The notes: generated by a model not told the origin, from the letters alone. A stretch of 32,000 nucleotides of DNA from Erysipelotrichaceae bacterium (GCA_963676105.1 OY781039.1:1830001-1862000), one strand, 5' to 3'; positions 2,622 through 9,424 are shown, numbered from the stretch's first letter. Translations and numbers: made by a program.

Positions 2622-2639
2622 GGGTCACGATCGGGTCAC
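2622..2639 (+). promoter_or_regulatory. Tandem direct heptads GGGTCAC-N4-GGGTCAC upstream of RNA copy A
   Basis: Read directly; exactly 38 nt separate the second heptad from the TATAAT box, the same spacing as in copies B and C. Confidence 0.6.
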
Positions 2640-2689
2640 AAAATAGTGATTATTATTAGAAATCTTATAAAATTATATATAATCCTATT

Positions 2690-2795
2690 AGAAGTTATCT
2701 AGGTTTATAGCGTTATATAGAAGTTTGCATGGTACCTGAGATAAATCTCGGTGTCGGCACCATTTGTAAGTCAAGACCCAATTTGGGTCTTTTTC
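2690..2795 (+). ncRNA. Candidate ~105-nt small RNA, copy A (unknown family)
   Basis: TATAAT at 2678-2683; conserved hairpins; invariant 23-mer AAATCTCGGTGTCGGCACCATTT (2743-2765); terminator AGACCC-aattt-GGGTCT + T run; 5' end approximate; no conserved ORF. Confidence 0.55.
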
Positions 2796-2847
2796 ATTGT
2801 TAAAACTGCAGAAAAACACATTTAAACATTTAGAACCATATTTGTTT

Positions 2848-2864
2848 GGGTCACACTTGGTCAC
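2848..2864 (+). promoter_or_regulatory. Second heptad pair GGGTCAC-N3-TGGTCAC, ~50 nt downstream of copy A terminator
   Basis: Read directly; lies at the left edge of the AT-rich RiPP cassette. Confidence 0.45.
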
Positions 2865-3072
2865 TAAAAAAATTCTAAGTCTATTTTGATTTTACTTGTG
2901 TGATTGTGCAATTCTTAGTTAATATATTTTGATTACAAAAAGATGTGTTTACTATAATTGTGAAAAAAATTATGAAAAATAGAGATCAAGTTAGGAAATA
3001 TTTATATTTTTTATTTAGAACTATTTAGATGATGTATAAATTATTACTATTATTAATATTTAATATTTAAGA

Positions 3073-4677
3073 CTATTCTAACTCAATTACTTGATCAAAA
3101 TTAATATGCTCGGATGCTAATAATGCATGGCTTATATAAATCAGGGTTAAATCTTTTTGTTCAAACAGCATTTTTTTAATTGCAAGAGAATTTTCTTTGT
3201 CTATTGCGTTATCTGCTTCATCGAAAAGAATTATTTGTTTTTTGAAAAGAAGTGCTCTTGCTATTGCGATACGTTGCTTTTCGCCATTTGATAGATTTTT
3301 ACCATCTTCACCAGATTGAATAGTTAAATCGTCTATATTTTTGACTAATGTGTTTAACTTAGATAGATTTGTTTGCTCTATTACATGATTTAATTCAAAG
3401 ATTTTGCCCAAAGTGATATTATCTAGAATTGTTGAATTAAATGTATATGAACTTTGATCAATATAAGCAAAAAGTTGATTTATCGTTGTTGATGTTAAAT
3501 CATTATAATTTGTTTCATCGAGAATAATATTTCCACGATAATTTTCTAATCTTTTCATAAGGATTTTTAATAAAGTTGTTTTCCCAGTTCCACTTGGAGC
3601 GATAATGGCGATTTTTTCACCCTTGTTAATCTTTAAATTTATATTCTTTAATAACTCTTTCGAGTCATCATATTGAAAATAAAGATGTTCAATAACTAAA
3701 TGATTTTTAAATTCAAATGCATTTGTATCTAATGTGTTGTGAATCGAATCAGTATTTGAAATTCTTGAAATCAAATGTTTTGTTGAATTAATCATCGGAA
3801 TAAGTTGAGCAAATTGACCTAAAGAGTTATAAAATAGTCCAGATAAATTACCAATTGTTATTATATAAATAGGATTTACAATACCTGTATATGAAAGATA
3901 AATGAATAATATTTGATTAGAGAATTGAATAACTATACTCAATAATTGAACTAATGAATTAGTAATTGTTTGAAATCTTGATAGCGCGAACTTTTTGTTT
4001 TCTAATTCATGACTTTCAAGATTAATATTATTAATCATTGAGTCAATAGCCGAATAGTTGTCCCATATTTCATAACCATAAAGATTACTCTTAACGTTAG
4101 TTGTAAACATACTTTGTTGCTTTGAAAAATTGGATGTTAATAGTTGTGTTTTTTTACTAAACAGACCTGGAAAAGTAATCATCAATATAAAAAATACTAT
4201 TGATGAAAGTGATAACCATAAGCTTAAGTAACTAATTGCAATAAATGAAAAAACTATAGATAAAAGGAAGTGTGTAGCATCAAATAAATTTCTATAGGTT
4301 TTTTGTTCAATCAATTGCGAATCATTTATAAGCCAAGATAAATATTCGCCTTTGTCTTCTTTTATAAAATCAGAATATTTCATATTTGAGACAGAACGTG
4401 CAATCAAATTCCTATAATTAAAATTCAATCGACTAATAATATATTCTTTTAAAGTGATTCTTAAATTTTCAATTAATATATAGGCAAACCACATCAATAG
4501 CACAGTTAATGTAACAGTCATCGTTAAATTAAATCCATTGAAGTTTATAAGTGAACCAATGATCTCAGCAGCTTTAAAATTAATATAAATATTTAATAGT
4601 ATTGAACAAATATCTAAAATAACAAAAGATAATATTTGATGAAACTTCCCTTGTGCAATCTTTATAAGATTTTTCAT
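3073..4677 (-). CDS. ABC exporter, fused transmembrane + ATP-binding domains (RiPP export/immunity candidate)
   Basis: N-terminal ~6 TM region; Walker A APSGTGKTT, signature LSNGEKQR, Walker B ILFDEADN; ATG overlaps TGA of upstream rSAM gene (ATGA). Confidence 0.85.
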   Translation of the reverse strand: MKNLIKIAQGKFHQILSFVILDICSILLNIYINFKAAEIIGSLINFNGFNLTMTVTLTVLLMWFAYILIENLRITLKEYIISRLNFNYRNLIARSVSNMKYSDFIKEDKGEYLSWLINDSQLIEQKTYRNLFDATHFLLSIVFSFIAISYLSLWLSLSSIVFFILMITFPGLFSKKTQLLTSNFSKQQSMFTTNVKSNLYGYEIWDNYSAIDSMINNINLESHELENKKFALSRFQTITNSLVQLLSIVIQFSNQILFIYLSYTGIVNPIYIITIGNLSGLFYNSLGQFAQLIPMINSTKHLISRISNTDSIHNTLDTNAFEFKNHLVIEHLYFQYDDSKELLKNINLKINKGEKIAIIAPSGTGKTTLLKILMKRLENYRGNIILDETNYNDLTSTTINQLFAYIDQSSYTFNSTILDNITLGKIFELNHVIEQTNLSKLNTLVKNIDDLTIQSGEDGKNLSNGEKQRIAIARALLFKKQIILFDEADNAIDKENSLAIKKMLFEQKDLTLIYISHALLASEHINFDQVIELE

Positions 4678-8041: not shown

Positions 8042-8050
8042 TGGTATAAT
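8042..8050 (+). promoter_or_regulatory. Extended -10 promoter TGgTATAAT for the ATPase gene
   Basis: TGNTATAAT match 47 nt upstream of the ATG; weak -35. Confidence 0.55.
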
Positions 8051-8065
8051 TCTATTGCATAAAAA

Positions 8066-8079
8066 TGCGTATTTACGCA
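8066..8079. promoter_or_regulatory. Palindrome TGCGTA-tt-TACGCA (operator candidate O2) in the 5' leader of the ATPase gene
   Basis: Same 6+2+6 core as O1; a 23-nt direct repeat (GCATnAAAATGCGTAnnTACGCA) is shared by both sites. Confidence 0.5.
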
Positions 8080-8096
8080 AAAAAAGGAAATATATC

Positions 8097-9350
8097 ATGG
8101 AAATAAAAAGAACTAAGTATTTGGAAAAGTTGATCATAAGAAAACATAATAACCTTGTAAAAATCATTACAGGTATTCGTAGATGTGGGAAATCTTATTT
8201 ATTGTTTTACTTATTCTATGACCATTTAGTTGAAAATGGAGTCAATAACTCTCATATAATAAAAATCGCTCTAGATGATTGGGCAAATAGAGAATTACGT
8301 AATCCAGATAATTTATATAAACATATTAAGATGAATATAAAAGATGATAACGTTTACTATATCCTTTTAGATGAAGTGCAACTAGTTGAACATTTTGAGG
8401 ATGTACTAAATGGACTTTTACATATAAAAAATTGTGATATATATGTTACAGGTAGCAATGCAAAATTTTTGTCAAAAGATATCATTACCGAGTTTAGAGG
8501 AAGAGGAGATCAAATTCAACTATATCCTCTCAGTTTTTCTGAGTTTTTATCCACTTTCAAAGGGGATAAGAATGAAGCTTGGAAAGAATATATGGTTTAT
8601 GGAGGGTTACCAAATATTACTTTACTGAAATCTGAAGAACATAAAAAAGAGTATTTAAATAACCTTTTAAAAGAAACTTATTTAACAGATATTATCGAAA
8701 GACATAATATAAGAAATGATTCTGAACTATCGGAAATACTTAATGTATTAGCATCTTCAATTGGTTCATTAACAAACCCTAGTAAGCTGGTAAATACCTT
8801 TAAAAGTTTGAAGAAAATTGATATTAGTGCGCATACAGTAAAGTCATATTTTGAATATTTTGAAGATTCATTTTTAATTGAAAGTTCAATGAGATATGAC
8901 GTTAAAGGTAAGAAATATATCAATACACCTTATAAATTTTATTTTACTGACATGGGATTAAGGAATGCTAAATTGAATTTTCGTCAACTAGAAGAAAATC
9001 ATATTATGGAAAATATTGTTTTCAATGAATTAAAAGTTAGAGGTTATTCTGTGGACGTAGGTGTTGTTGTTCTAAACACAAAGGATAGTAATGGAAAAAG
9101 TATTCGAAAACAATTAGAAATAGATTTTATATGCAATAGAGGTGAGCAAAAATACTATATACAATCAGCCTATAGAATTGACACTGATGAAAAAGAATTT
9201 CAAGAACTACAATCTTTTAGAAACATAAATGACTCGTTCAAAAAGATAATTATTATTAAAGATAGAAACGTCATAAACAAAGATGAAGAAGGTTATCTGA
9301 GAATAGGTCTATTTGATTTTTTGTTAAATGAAAATAGCCTAGATTATTGA
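8097..9350 (+). CDS. AAA_14-type ATPase with DUF4143-like C-terminal domain
   Basis: Walker A GIRRCGKS, Walker B LLDEVQ; C-terminal LEIDF...IQSAY block; start chosen at MEIKRTKYLEKL, downstream of the promoter and an AAGGA SD. Confidence 0.8.
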   Translation: MEIKRTKYLEKLIIRKHNNLVKIITGIRRCGKSYLLFYLFYDHLVENGVNNSHIIKIALDDWANRELRNPDNLYKHIKMNIKDDNVYYILLDEVQLVEHFEDVLNGLLHIKNCDIYVTGSNAKFLSKDIITEFRGRGDQIQLYPLSFSEFLSTFKGDKNEAWKEYMVYGGLPNITLLKSEEHKKEYLNNLLKETYLTDIIERHNIRNDSELSEILNVLASSIGSLTNPSKLVNTFKSLKKIDISAHTVKSYFEYFEDSFLIESSMRYDVKGKKYINTPYKFYFTDMGLRNAKLNFRQLEENHIMENIVFNELKVRGYSVDVGVVVLNTKDSNGKSIRKQLEIDFICNRGEQKYYIQSAYRIDTDEKEFQELQSFRNINDSFKKIIIIKDRNVINKDEEGYLRIGLFDFLLNENSLDY

Positions 9351-9406
9351 AATATTTAAATTAATGTTAAATGAGATTCTAGCTATTTTAAAATAATAAA
9401 TTATTT

Positions 9407-9424
9407 GGGTCACGCCAGGGTCAC
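9407..9424 (+). promoter_or_regulatory. Tandem direct heptads GGGTCAC-N4-GGGTCAC upstream of RNA copy C
   Basis: Read directly; 38 nt to the TATAAT box. Confidence 0.6.

Follow-up and report, generated by a model that had tools for sequence, protein, structure and literature searches.

Lactobacillus phage mv4, like lambda, has an attP site for a heterobivalent tyrosine integrase; the mv4 site is 215 bp long, each of its arms ends in one pair of adjacent direct-repeat arm sites, and it serves integration at the 3′ end of a tRNA-Ser gene; lambda attP has three Xis sites, and Xis and other recombination directionality factors (RDFs) also bind tandem direct repeats in att arms (bioRxiv 10.1101/2023.11.06.565760). 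In Streptococcus thermophilus, the CIMEs related to ICESt1 and ICESt3 lie between att sites, lack genes for integration and transfer, and stand one behind another at a target gene's 3′ end (PMC5704250). Tycheposons of Prochlorococcus and the ssrA islands of Dehalococcoides, the latter as outlined in PMC3146451, result from successive integrations at tRNA or tmRNA genes, with partial tRNA copies between the elements.

Here we describe a locus in an Erysipelotrichaceae genome that is a genomic island of a known kind, formed by tandem accretion of cassettes at a tRNA gene; the window analysed is the whole stretch of 32,000 nucleotides presented here. Three units within it had been described in an earlier note as small RNA genes, each preceded by a GGGTCAC double heptad, which was read either as the binding site of a direct-repeat-recognizing activator or as a recombination boundary in an accretion hotspot whose recombinase acts in trans. 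We consider it very probable that the three ‘small RNA genes’ are repeated attachment sites, produced by successive insertions of integrase-less cassettes at the 3′ end of tRNA-Thr. Going by their sequence and position, the double heptads are probably arm-type binding sites of a heterobivalent tyrosine integrase.

Layout of the array

The units, here called A, B and C, alternate with two cassettes as follows (X and Y denote putative left and right arms; strands are given where assigned).

17-724, + strand: MacB-type ABC ATPase (Pfam), left of unit A
721-1989, + strand: permease, left of unit A; nearest relative only 62% identical
2072-2608, + strand: ferric-reductase-like membrane protein, left of unit A; nearest relative only 53% identical
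2622-2639, + strand: left-arm (candidate P-arm) heptad pair of unit A, GGGTCAC-GATC-GGGTCAC; no conserved feature of the arm lies farther out
2640-2745, + strand: remainder of left arm X_A, with TATAAT at 2678-2683 and a hairpin, CTGAGA-TAAA-TCTCGG, running into the core
2746-2765, + strand: core copy A, TCTCGGTGTCGGCACCATTT; T-stem 3′ half, acceptor 3′ strand and ACCA, plus TTT
2766-7811: RiPP cassette, 5,046 bp; right arm Y_A, cargo, left arm X_B and one core copy
2773-2797: terminator of Y_A, in the right arm of the RiPP cassette
2848-2864, + strand: right-arm (candidate P′-arm) heptad pair of unit A, GGGTCAC-ACT-TGGTCAC; one mismatch; starts 82 nt past the core
3073-7571, − strand: cargo 1, whole
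3073-4677, − strand: ABC exporter, cargo 1
4674-5921, − strand: radical SAM/SPASM peptide maturase, cargo 1
5969-6049 and within 6110-6295, − strand: small peptide ORFs, cargo 1
6321-7571, − strand: 416-aa protein without a family match, cargo 1
7669-7685, + strand: left-arm heptad pair of unit B, GGGTCAC-AAC-GGGTCAC
7792-7811, + strand: core copy B, 20 bp
7812-9550: ATPase cassette, 1,739 bp; right arm Y_B, ATPase, left arm X_C and one core copy
7819-7842: terminator of Y_B, in the right arm of the ATPase cassette
7904-7921, + strand: right-arm pair of unit B, GGTCCAC-AGCT-GGGTCTC; three mismatches, degenerate
8097-9350: AAA_14/DUF4143 ATPase, cargo of the ATPase cassette
9407-9424, + strand: left-arm heptad pair of unit C, GGGTCAC-GCCA-GGGTCAC
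9531-9550, + strand: core copy C, an attR-type junction at which homology to the sister genome begins
9551-11303, + strand: chromosomal flank, with the native tRNA-Thr terminator (9558-9583), the bgl leader and the GH1 gene (9831-11303)

The array thus runs pair, ‘RNA’, pair, cargo 1, pair, ‘RNA’, pair, cargo 2, pair, ‘RNA’, bgl, in the order that the earlier note had given. Each cassette lies between core copies with their arms and has no genes other than cargo; the AAA_14/DUF4143 ATPase matches PADLOC PDC-S01 (E 4.6e-117). Left of unit A, the region 1-2608 has a GC content of 33%, like the core genome, and neither the sister genome nor the L121-type strains supply the closest relative of its permease or its membrane protein. 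The genes in this region are probably the cargo of a further element, whose left end, perhaps with an integrase, would lie beyond the window; the window does not contain the intact 5′ part of tRNA-Thr, which on our model should stand at the array's left end.

Comparison with described systems

As in mv4 and lambda attP, the core is identical to a tRNA 3′ end and is duplicated on integration, and the site is of similar length (215-240 bp, versus 243 bp for unit A, end to end from 2622 to 2864). At the level of sequence, the units also have short direct repeats in the arms, far from the core, and share with mv4 the adjacent repeat pairs (P1-P2 and P′1-P′2) at the outer arm ends. They differ in that no cognate integrase gene lies in or beside the cassettes, or next to any att site in the window; in the arm sites, which are 11 bp in mv4, the candidate sites here being a 7-bp repeat with a 10-11-bp period; and in that no clear inverted core-type sites were found.

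Both cassettes have attL/attR flanks and are without integration or transfer genes, as CIMEs are defined (PMC5704250), and as in tandem CIMEs new elements extend the array by integrating into an att site already present. Unlike CIMEs, which derive from ICEs or IMEs by decay and are mobilised in cis by a functional element next to them, they show no integrase, relaxase or conjugation remnant that would point to ICE or IME descent, they are very small (1.7 and 5.0 kb) and carry long attP-type arms, and the mobilising partner element is not seen here. Tycheposons and ssrA islands share with this locus the successive integrations, the partial tRNA copies and the adaptive or defensive cargo, but they normally have their own integrase and often replication genes, none of which occur in the units visible here.

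Integron gene cassettes are small, promoter-poor cargo units without a recombinase of their own that accumulate at one site through the action of a recombinase whose gene lies elsewhere. The cassettes described here are likewise small, integrase-less cargo units stacked at one site, but their att sites are ~240 bp long with a tRNA-derived core, rather than folded attC hairpins; there is no IntI or attI here, and the insertion point is a tRNA gene.

The earlier note had stated that no recombinase is encoded here, and a domain scan of the window's ORFs of at least 60 aa found no phage integrase or recombinase domain, the left end of the array being outside the window. Neither the RiPP cassette nor the ATPase cassette encodes an integrase, and searches of viral, phage, plasmid and metagenome collections found no element that combines these arms with an integrase.

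The core is the 3′ end of tRNA-Thr

Every ‘RNA’ contains the same 20 bp, TCTCGGTGTCGGCACCATTT, and this invariant core is identical to the 3′ end of tRNA-Thr(GGU): TCTCGGTGTCGGCACCA(TTT) is made up of the 3′ half of the T-stem, the 3′ strand of the acceptor and the ACCA of this tRNA in the sequences L030, L128 and L130. It is identical across all copies, while its flanks are 75-92% identical. Inside the core is a near-palindrome, GGTGTCGGCACC, with GGTG and CACC around TCGG, forming a short hairpin. Sites of such integrases have inverted core-type sites around an overlap region of 6-8 bp; a 7-bp overlap bordered by inverted repeats could not be assigned convincingly in this core.

A motif that had been noted as recurring in the terminators, TTTGGGTC, is present in them, but it is simply the chromosomal tRNA-Thr terminator and is also found at the heptad-free empty site of the sister genome. 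The terminators of the right arms differ in sequence but keep a hairpin and a U-tract, which fits the need for termination of the tRNA gene after integration.

In the mechanism that we propose, each ‘RNA unit’ would consist of a ~125-bp element-borne left arm (X), beginning with the GGGTCAC pair, then the core, then a right side that would be either a right arm (Y), belonging to the cassette that follows, or chromosomal DNA. Strand exchange would occur at the 20-bp core identical to the tRNA 3′ end: a circular cassette of the form X-core-Y would recombine with the resident core and come to lie inserted as Y, cargo, X and core, its right arm supplying the tRNA with a substitute terminator and also carrying, in the case of unit A, a second GGGTCAC pair. 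Repeated rounds of insertion would build the tandem array. The cassettes may be mobilised in trans, or they may be decayed, CIME-like remnants.

Related genomes show the empty site and stepwise insertion

The sister genome OY760660.1 has an empty site, comprising Maf, an intact tRNA-Thr (detected with ARAGORN), the same terminator, the bgl leader and GH1. Homology between the window and this genome begins exactly at 9531, and from the core onward the alignment is unbroken, the flank 9551-11303 being 91% identical. The core has only two matches in the sister genome, the tRNA itself and a bare fragment, and there is no GGGTCAC in the 21 kb around its site. L128 shows the empty site, with a single core.

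Other genomes carry one or more insertions at the same position. L129 and L130 read tRNA, core, toxin–antitoxin (TA) module, GH1, and are without the ATPase cassette. L123 reads tRNA T-arm, core, Y_B, ATPase, X, core, TA, GH1, with the ATPase cassette directly 3′ of the intact tRNA T-arm. L121 and L122 read other DNA, X_A-type arm, core, Y_B, ATPase, X_C, core, TA, GH1; the RiPP cassette present in the window is absent from both, and their junction is X_A-type arm, core, Y_B-type arm. In L133, an unrelated arm and cargo are followed by core, terminator and bgl. Core-bounded elements are thus present in some genomes and absent from others, alongside a single-core empty site, and each cassette is exactly one added unit of right arm, cargo, left arm and core. 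The comparison of strains that the earlier note had suggested turned up an empty site, single insertions and alternative cargo, all at exactly this place.

The L121 junction locates the exchange. Its left side is X_A-like (89%, versus 78% for X_B; X_A was compared with the L121 arm at L121 213-342, 89% identical) and its right side is Y_B-like (82%, versus 72% for Y_A). The crossover is at the 20-bp tRNA-Thr-derived core, between about −5 and +45 of the core, and not at the heptads. Of the hotspot reading, accretion is borne out by the empty site, the insertions, the alternative cargo and the absence of a recombinase from the window, but its proposal that the heptads are the recombination boundaries fails on the position of the crossover. 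Were the pairs themselves crossover sites or transposon-type ends, one could account for their location within 6-13 nt of the start of homology between arms with different adjoining cargo; but the arm type switches about 100 nt from either pair, the intact-tRNA junctions of L123 and L130 have no left pair, and left and right pairs differ in sequence, which makes this extremely improbable.

GGGTCAC pairs at the ends of the arms

The three exact GGGTCAC-N3/4-GGGTCAC pairs first reported (2622-2639, 7669-7685 and 9407-9424, + strand) were recovered, as were the weaker downstream pairs at 2848-2864 and 7904-7921. No such pair is expected by chance, with 0 matches in dinucleotide shuffles. Exact GGGTCAC occurs seven times in the 32 kb, always on the + strand and always within the units (2622, 2633, 2848, 7669, 7679, 9407 and 9418). 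The heptads are the outer ends of attP-like units of ~243 bp, ~106 nt upstream and 82 nt downstream of the core; relative to core A, the pairs occupy −124 to −107 and +83 to +99. A good right-arm pair is found in unit A only. That of unit B has decayed, and its ortholog in L121 and L123 reads AATTCAC-AGAT-GGGTCAT, so this pair is drifting. The heptad pairs would correspond to P1-P2 and P′1-P′2, with the integrase linking arm to core in the synaptic complex, in the manner of lambda and above all of mv4 attP.

Homology between the left arm of unit A and its L121 ortholog extends at most 6 nt beyond the first heptad on the upstream side. Among five distinct arms, none of the 14 heptad columns vary, compared with 4 of 4 spacer columns and 39% of the remaining arm (P about 1e-3). 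This pattern bears on whether the units are inert, CIME-like scars of old integrations, with heptads that are unbound today and kept only by the youth of the copies. Such scars would be consistent with the absence of a nearby integrase, with the decay of the unit B right-arm pair and with the left arm of L123, in which the second heptad is mutated (GAGTCAG) and TATCAT replaces TATAAT. Youth would not, however, explain why all 14 heptad positions are kept while the spacers and so many other columns change, or why X_B, the most diverged arm (75-81% identical to the others), has both heptads exact, and we regard inert scars as quite improbable.

The CtsR operator is a tandem heptad, A/GGTCAAA-NAN-A/GGTCAAA, with a fixed 3-nt spacing, and overlaps clp and heat-shock promoters. 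Like it, the GGGTCAC pairs are direct heptad repeats that share GGTCA as their core, are spaced by about 10 bp and occur in a Gram-positive genome of low GC content. They differ in having C at position 6 in all exact copies and a spacer of 3 or 4 nt (10-11 bp), in lying about 60 nt upstream of a putative start rather than over the promoter, and in occurring only on island att arms, being absent from the sister genome's site. With this heptad, a variable spacer, a position of about −60 and no clp/hsp gene downstream, identity with the CtsR operator was rejected.

The units considered as RNA genes

TATAAT boxes lie at 2678-2683, 7724-7729 and 9463-9468, each 38 nt past its heptad pair, as had been described. 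This distance is one observation and not three independent ones, because the three units, which share a repeat of at least 175 bp in alignment, are copies by descent of one repeat. The conserved left-arm TATAAT has no explanation in the arm-site model.

If the heptads were a direct-repeat activator site of the OmpR/PhoB type, the three ~110-nt RNAs would form a regulon driven from promoters with a weak −35. The pair centre lies about 60 nt upstream of the presumed start, the heptads are spaced by a helical turn, a poor −35 (TTAGAA/ATAGAA) follows the end of each pair after 16-17 nt, 5 of 6 arms retain TATAAT, and an OmpR-family regulator is encoded at 20403-21065. The ‘RNA’, however, is chimeric, joining an element arm to the 3′ end and the terminator of the tRNA, its 3′ third being the tRNA fragment together with the tRNA's own terminator. 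It matches no Rfam family, it folds no better than shuffled sequence (z-scores −0.9 to −1.8, owed mostly to the terminator), and just 1 of 21 pairs is compensatory, which is not what an independent RNA gene with a conserved structure or a known family would give. A consensus promoter scan found no + strand promoter in the units, promoter-like sites were not enriched over shuffles, and the downstream pairs have no promoter at the equivalent distance. The sister genome retains the OmpR-family response regulator but has neither heptads nor an X-core RNA at its site, and the unrelated arm of L133, whose tandem repeat stands equally far from the core, has no homologous RNA segment. A regulon of small RNAs is therefore very unlikely.

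Comparable arms elsewhere

Of seven distinct viral matches, six are unrelated, among them a herpesvirus and a primase-associated repeat region. The single comparable case is viral contig L120, in which a tyrosine integrase gene stops 5 nt short of GGGTCAC-AAAT-GGGTCAC. This pair is followed by a tRNA-like fragment and a second identical pair, 220 bp in all; the fragment is on the strand opposite to the heptads, whereas in the window units both are on the same strand.

The position of these pairs also bears on which protein binds them. Another element-specific protein, either Xis or another RDF or an element repressor, could bind the heptads, and the units would still be att sites of a tRNA-Thr island. 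Arm sequence data do not tell which protein binds, and tandem direct repeats in att arms, such as the lambda Xis sites, are also bound by Xis and RDFs. RDF sites, however, usually lie in one arm, between the arm sites and the core, whereas the pairs in unit A and L120 stand at the outer ends of both arms, the position published for the arm sites of the mv4 integrase; we therefore think a protein other than the integrase unlikely.

Arms of other types at this core have tandem repeats of their own, with a period of 11 bp. The L133 arm has two copies of GTGTAACA, ending 112 nt before the core (versus 106 nt for GGGTCAC), and the arm of the TA module has two copies of GAGACTAAT. Within about 77 kb, five of the seven tandem repeats of 11-bp period lie in att arms.

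Paired heptads open each copy of one repeat unit

The earlier note had reported three GGGTCAC direct-repeat pairs, each at a fixed 38 nt from a TATAAT box, with weaker pairs further downstream. A pattern search of the window recovered all three exact pairs, where dinucleotide shuffles give an expectation of zero, and the seven exact heptads in the 32 kb all lie on the + strand within the three units A, B and C (formerly taken for small RNA genes). By sequence reading, one of the downstream pairs is good, while the other is present but poor.

2622-2639, + strand, exact GGGTCAC-N3/4-GGGTCAC pair
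7669-7685, + strand, exact GGGTCAC-N3/4-GGGTCAC pair
9407-9424, + strand, exact GGGTCAC-N3/4-GGGTCAC pair
2848-2864, + strand, good second pair, GGGTCAC-ACT-TGGTCAC
7904-7921, + strand, poor second pair, GGTCCAC-AGCT-GGGTCTC

The TATAAT boxes, read at 2678, 7724 and 9463, do begin 38 nt after the end of each pair, but the fixed distance does not count as three independent cases, because alignment makes each pair the first feature of a copy of one repeat unit. Each unit consists of a left arm (X), a core and a right arm (Y) or chromosome; unit A carries pairs at both outer ends and measures 243 bp in total.

Two smaller repeats were also seen. In the left arm, ~25–40 nt before the core, there is a direct repeat TTTATAG-CGT-TTTATAG with 10-bp spacing (2708-2724, 7754-7770 and 9489-9505), the copy B version differing in both halves (TTTTAAG-CGT-TTTAAAG); RNAalifold folds this repeat into a hairpin, and it could equally be a further protein-binding site of the arm. 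The left edge of the RiPP cassette, some 250 nt past core A, has a tandem repeat TATTTAGAAC-TATTTAGA with a 10-bp period (3012-3029); the right-arm heptad pair precedes it and the end of the ABC exporter gene follows.

The core of the unit is the 3' end of a tRNA-Thr gene

A 20-bp block, TCTCGGTGTCGGCACCATTT, is identical at 2746, 7792 and 9531, with flanks diverged on both sides. We scanned the genome collection with the 18-nt invariant core of the unit, which matched 110 stretches, most of them by chance and in GC-rich genomes; the only relevant ones were two (L030 and L086) from a sister genome, OY760660.1. In that genome an intact tRNA-Thr(GGU) ends in the same 17 nt, comprising the 3' half of the T-stem, the 3' strand of the acceptor and ACCA, and is followed by a terminator, a bgl leader and a GH1 gene matching those of the window. 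Homology between the two genomes is unbroken from 9531 onward (91%) and ends exactly at the T-stem. The sister site, read with a 10-kb flank, runs Maf, tRNA-Thr, terminator, bgl leader, GH1, with no GGGTCAC within 21 kb, and is thus the empty site that the earlier note had proposed looking for.

The other sister stretch, L086, holds an orphan 22-nt tRNA-Thr 3' fragment (L086 4116-4137, at about 1.276 Mb of the sister genome), 492 kb from the tRNA-Thr gene. It directly follows a C5 methylase/MutH-like endonuclease pair (restriction-modification) and precedes a 700-aa protein matching PADLOC PDC-S46; left arm and terminator are both absent from this core, possibly the att site of a defence island that has moved or decayed.

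Related strains place the crossover at the core

Contigs encoding GH1 proteins of the same 90% cluster as the window GH1 provided a comparative series; GH1 relatives at about 80% identity were not syntenic with the window. Contigs L130 and L129 have an intact tRNA-Thr, the core, a different hairpin terminator, a Gp49/HTH_3 toxin–antitoxin (TA) pair and GH1. L123 begins within a true tRNA T-arm (TCCGAGTTCGATTCTCGG) and continues with the core, a right arm of the unit B type (Y_B), the AAA_14/DUF4143 ATPase and a left arm, after which come a second core, the same TA module and GH1. L121 and L122 run from other DNA into left arm, core, Y_B, ATPase, left arm, core, TA and GH1, and L133 has a 414-aa protein without a family match, an unrelated left arm, the same core, the native terminator and bgl. 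Strain comparison thus yields empty, single and multiple insertions, together with the alternative cargo that a cassette hotspot had been suggested to show.

In the arm identity matrix, the first junction of L121 has an X_A-type arm on its left (89% identity vs 78% for X_B) and a Y_B-type arm on its right (82% vs 72% for Y_A), which makes L121 the empty site with respect to the RiPP cassette, as L130 is with respect to the ATPase cassette. With every insertion exactly one set of right arm, cargo, left arm and core is added.

2766-7811, RiPP cassette, 5,046 bp
7812-9550, ATPase cassette, 1,739 bp

The switch in arm type falls at about −5 to +45 of the core, whereas the heptads are 106 nt away from it on the upstream side and 82 nt on the downstream side, so that the proposal of the heptads as the recombination boundaries does not hold. 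Insertions of one such set with a switch at the core are what conservative site-specific recombination leaves behind when a circular X-core-Y site recombines with a resident core.

The genes left of unit A, for a MacB-type ABC transporter and a ferric-reductase-like membrane protein, lack close homologues in the sister genome and in L121-type strains; the array therefore probably continues beyond the start of the window, although the GC content of these left-side genes is core-like.

A nitroreductase block (11397-12237) is an indel relative to both the sister genome and L121. Its first 100 bp, a palindrome GACTTAAGTC followed by a T-run, are inverted in L121 at 102-202, where they stop 13 nt short of the heptads in the left arm that precedes the ATPase cassette, so one block end forms a junction in two contexts.

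The units as RNAs, and their terminators

Rfam searches of the window at gathering and permissive thresholds assigned no family to the units, returning only three unrelated tRNAs (27.6-27.9 kb) and noise. Because only 1 of 21 pairs in the consensus fold of the three copies is compensatory, and single folds are no better than shuffled sequence, with stability coming mostly from the terminator, we rejected a structured small RNA. A promoter consensus scan called no + strand promoter in the units and found no excess of promoter-like sites in the AT-rich region.

The hairpin and U-tract that follow each core serve as a terminator of the tRNA gene. The chromosome's own terminator has stayed at the right end of the array, as that of copy C, nearly identical to its counterpart in the sister genome, and each right arm brings its own terminator, different in sequence and the same in form. 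This also accounts for the motif TTTGGGTC noticed earlier in the terminators.

The heptads as candidate arm-type sites

The left arm has the heptads at its outer end: where the neighbouring cargo differs, homology between arms sets in at most 6 nt before the first heptad. Among five distinct arms, 0 of 14 heptad columns vary, compared with all four spacer columns and 39% of other arm columns (P about 1e-3). In a sixth arm, that of L123, the second heptad is mutated and TATCAT stands in place of TATAAT, which looks like decay.

Other arms carry tandem repeats of the same period. The L133 arm has GTGTAACA-CAA-GTGTAACA (1430-1448) with an 11-bp period, ending 112 nt before the core (1561-1580); this implies a second element family at the same tRNA-Thr site, probably with a different integrase specificity. 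The right arm of the TA module has two copies of GAGACTAAT, again with an 11-bp period. These sequences contain few exact tandem repeats of at least 8 nt at a 10–11-bp offset, about 0.1 per kb; of the seven found, five are in att arms.

In the activator reading, the heptads are a response-regulator site (OmpR/PhoB-type) and the three RNAs a regulon. Helical spacing and a position near −60 would suit a class I activator or response regulator, but the sister genome has the OmpR-family regulator (20403-21065 in the window) yet lacks heptads and units, the units occur only at island junctions, and the L133 arm has an equivalent repeat but no homologous 'RNA'; we regard this reading as very improbable. 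A CtsR box was rejected on sequence and position.

A viral contig, L120 (45% GC, otherwise unrelated), encodes a 360-aa tyrosine integrase whose gene ends 5 nt before a 21-mer, ATGGGTCACAAATGGGTCACA. The 21-mer recurs 202 bp after the first copy, the whole measuring 220 bp, and between them is a 66-nt tRNA-like fragment on which ARAGORN made no tRNA call. This region (11328-12634 of IMGVR_UViG_3300037427_003662) holds a complete-looking attP adjoining a tyrosine integrase, and its heptad is that of the window. Phage mv4 uses the tRNA-Ser 3' end as its integration site; its 215-bp attP bears two adjacent direct-repeat arm-binding sites at either arm end, and lambda attP has five arm sites in about 240 bp (bioRxiv 10.1101/2023.11.06.565760). 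Unit A shares with mv4 the layout of paired direct repeats at the outer arm ends.

Because of their arm-end position and selective conservation, the structure of unit A, the repeats of the other arms, L120 and the mv4 layout, we favour an arm-type role for the GGGTCAC pairs. They would correspond to P1-P2 and P'1-P'2 sites, and we infer that the protein is a heterobivalent tyrosine integrase. The main alternative is that an RDF or a repressor binds the heptads instead of the integrase.

Class, mobility and significance of the locus

No integrase is encoded in the window, and searches of viral, phage, plasmid and metagenome collections turned up no element that combines an integrase with these arms. 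The metagenome scan gave 0 matches for the X-core junction and two for the tRNA-core pattern, both ordinary tRNA-Thr genes without islands. The viral collection gave 0 matches to the core and 10 to the heptad pair, of which only L120 was informative, the others, including a herpesvirus and a primase-associated repeat region, being treated as unrelated. BLAST of unit A against phages and plasmids gave no match, and a PubMed Central search for GGGTCAC together with integrase returned nothing relevant.

Tandem accretion with integrase-less cis-mobilizable elements (CIMEs) is established (PMC5704250), as are integration at tRNA 3' ends and partial tRNA repeats between stacked elements, seen in tycheposons; ssrA islands (PMC3146451) are a further established case of stacked tRNA/tmRNA integrations. 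The locus works like all three, with an att architecture of the mv4/lambda type. Unlike integrative elements, the cassettes have no element-borne integrase, and we therefore file them as CIME-like, not as autonomous integrative elements. They are either still mobilised in trans or decayed CIME-like remnants, and at least some copies are drifting: the right-arm pair of the ATPase cassette and the L123 arm are both decayed.

It is possible, if rather unlikely, that the arms are not scars but the working ends of an integron-like, trans-mobilised cassette system at tRNA-Thr. Cassettes of 1.7–5 kb, with one cargo each (a defence candidate or a RiPP cluster), would keep a complete mv4-type attP (both heptad pairs, core and own tRNA terminator) but lack an integrase of their own; their capture, stacking and shuffling would fall to one integrase encoded elsewhere in the genome or carried by a visiting element, and the conserved left-arm TATAAT would act as an outward promoter. 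In a more remote variant, the X-core transcript, a scaffold plus 20 nt identical to the target, guides recombination. A guide or bridge RNA was also considered, but the window has neither a recombinase nor a nuclease of the RNA-guided kind.

What looked like three regulated small RNAs of one family thus resolves into att sites at a hotspot for integration into tRNA-Thr, in an uncultured lineage of Erysipelotrichaceae, giving this little-studied gut lineage a locus of established kind. The gains are cassette boundaries defined to the base, a natural insertion series with empty, single and multiple states, and a candidate arm-site motif, GGGTCAC ×2. If the cassettes are still mobile, they would offer a compact case of trans-mobilised cargo at a tRNA gene and possible parts for site-specific insertion; if not, the locus is an ordinary genomic island.

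Cargo of the cassettes

The cargo, comprising a RiPP cluster, a PDC-S01 ATPase, in relatives a TA pair and, by the orphan core of the sister genome, restriction-modification, is of the kind that moves between gut strains. The AAA_14/DUF4143 ATPase (8097-9350) is a full-length match to the PADLOC candidate defence family PDC-S01 (E 4.6e-117), so its 1.7-kb cassette is probably a single-gene anti-phage candidate.

3073-7571, radical SAM/SPASM RiPP locus of the other cassette: ABC exporter, maturase, two small ORFs and a 416-aa protein

The best NCBIfam match of the RiPP maturase, TIGR04463, is far below cutoff. One of the small ORFs encodes 26 aa (MLVTNEGITSYPTPRAWVNFFCGGFC) and the second ends in CYTWEC; the 416-aa protein, without a Pfam or NCBIfam match, may be a regulator.

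The Gp49 (HigB-like)/HTH_3 TA module stands directly after the core (L121 2108-2905, L130 160-970 and L129 1-830) and carries its own terminator and a GAGACTAAT-TT-GAGACTAAT repeat. Its right end lacks a second core, and the native tRNA terminator is replaced there. The toxin frame appears disrupted in L121.
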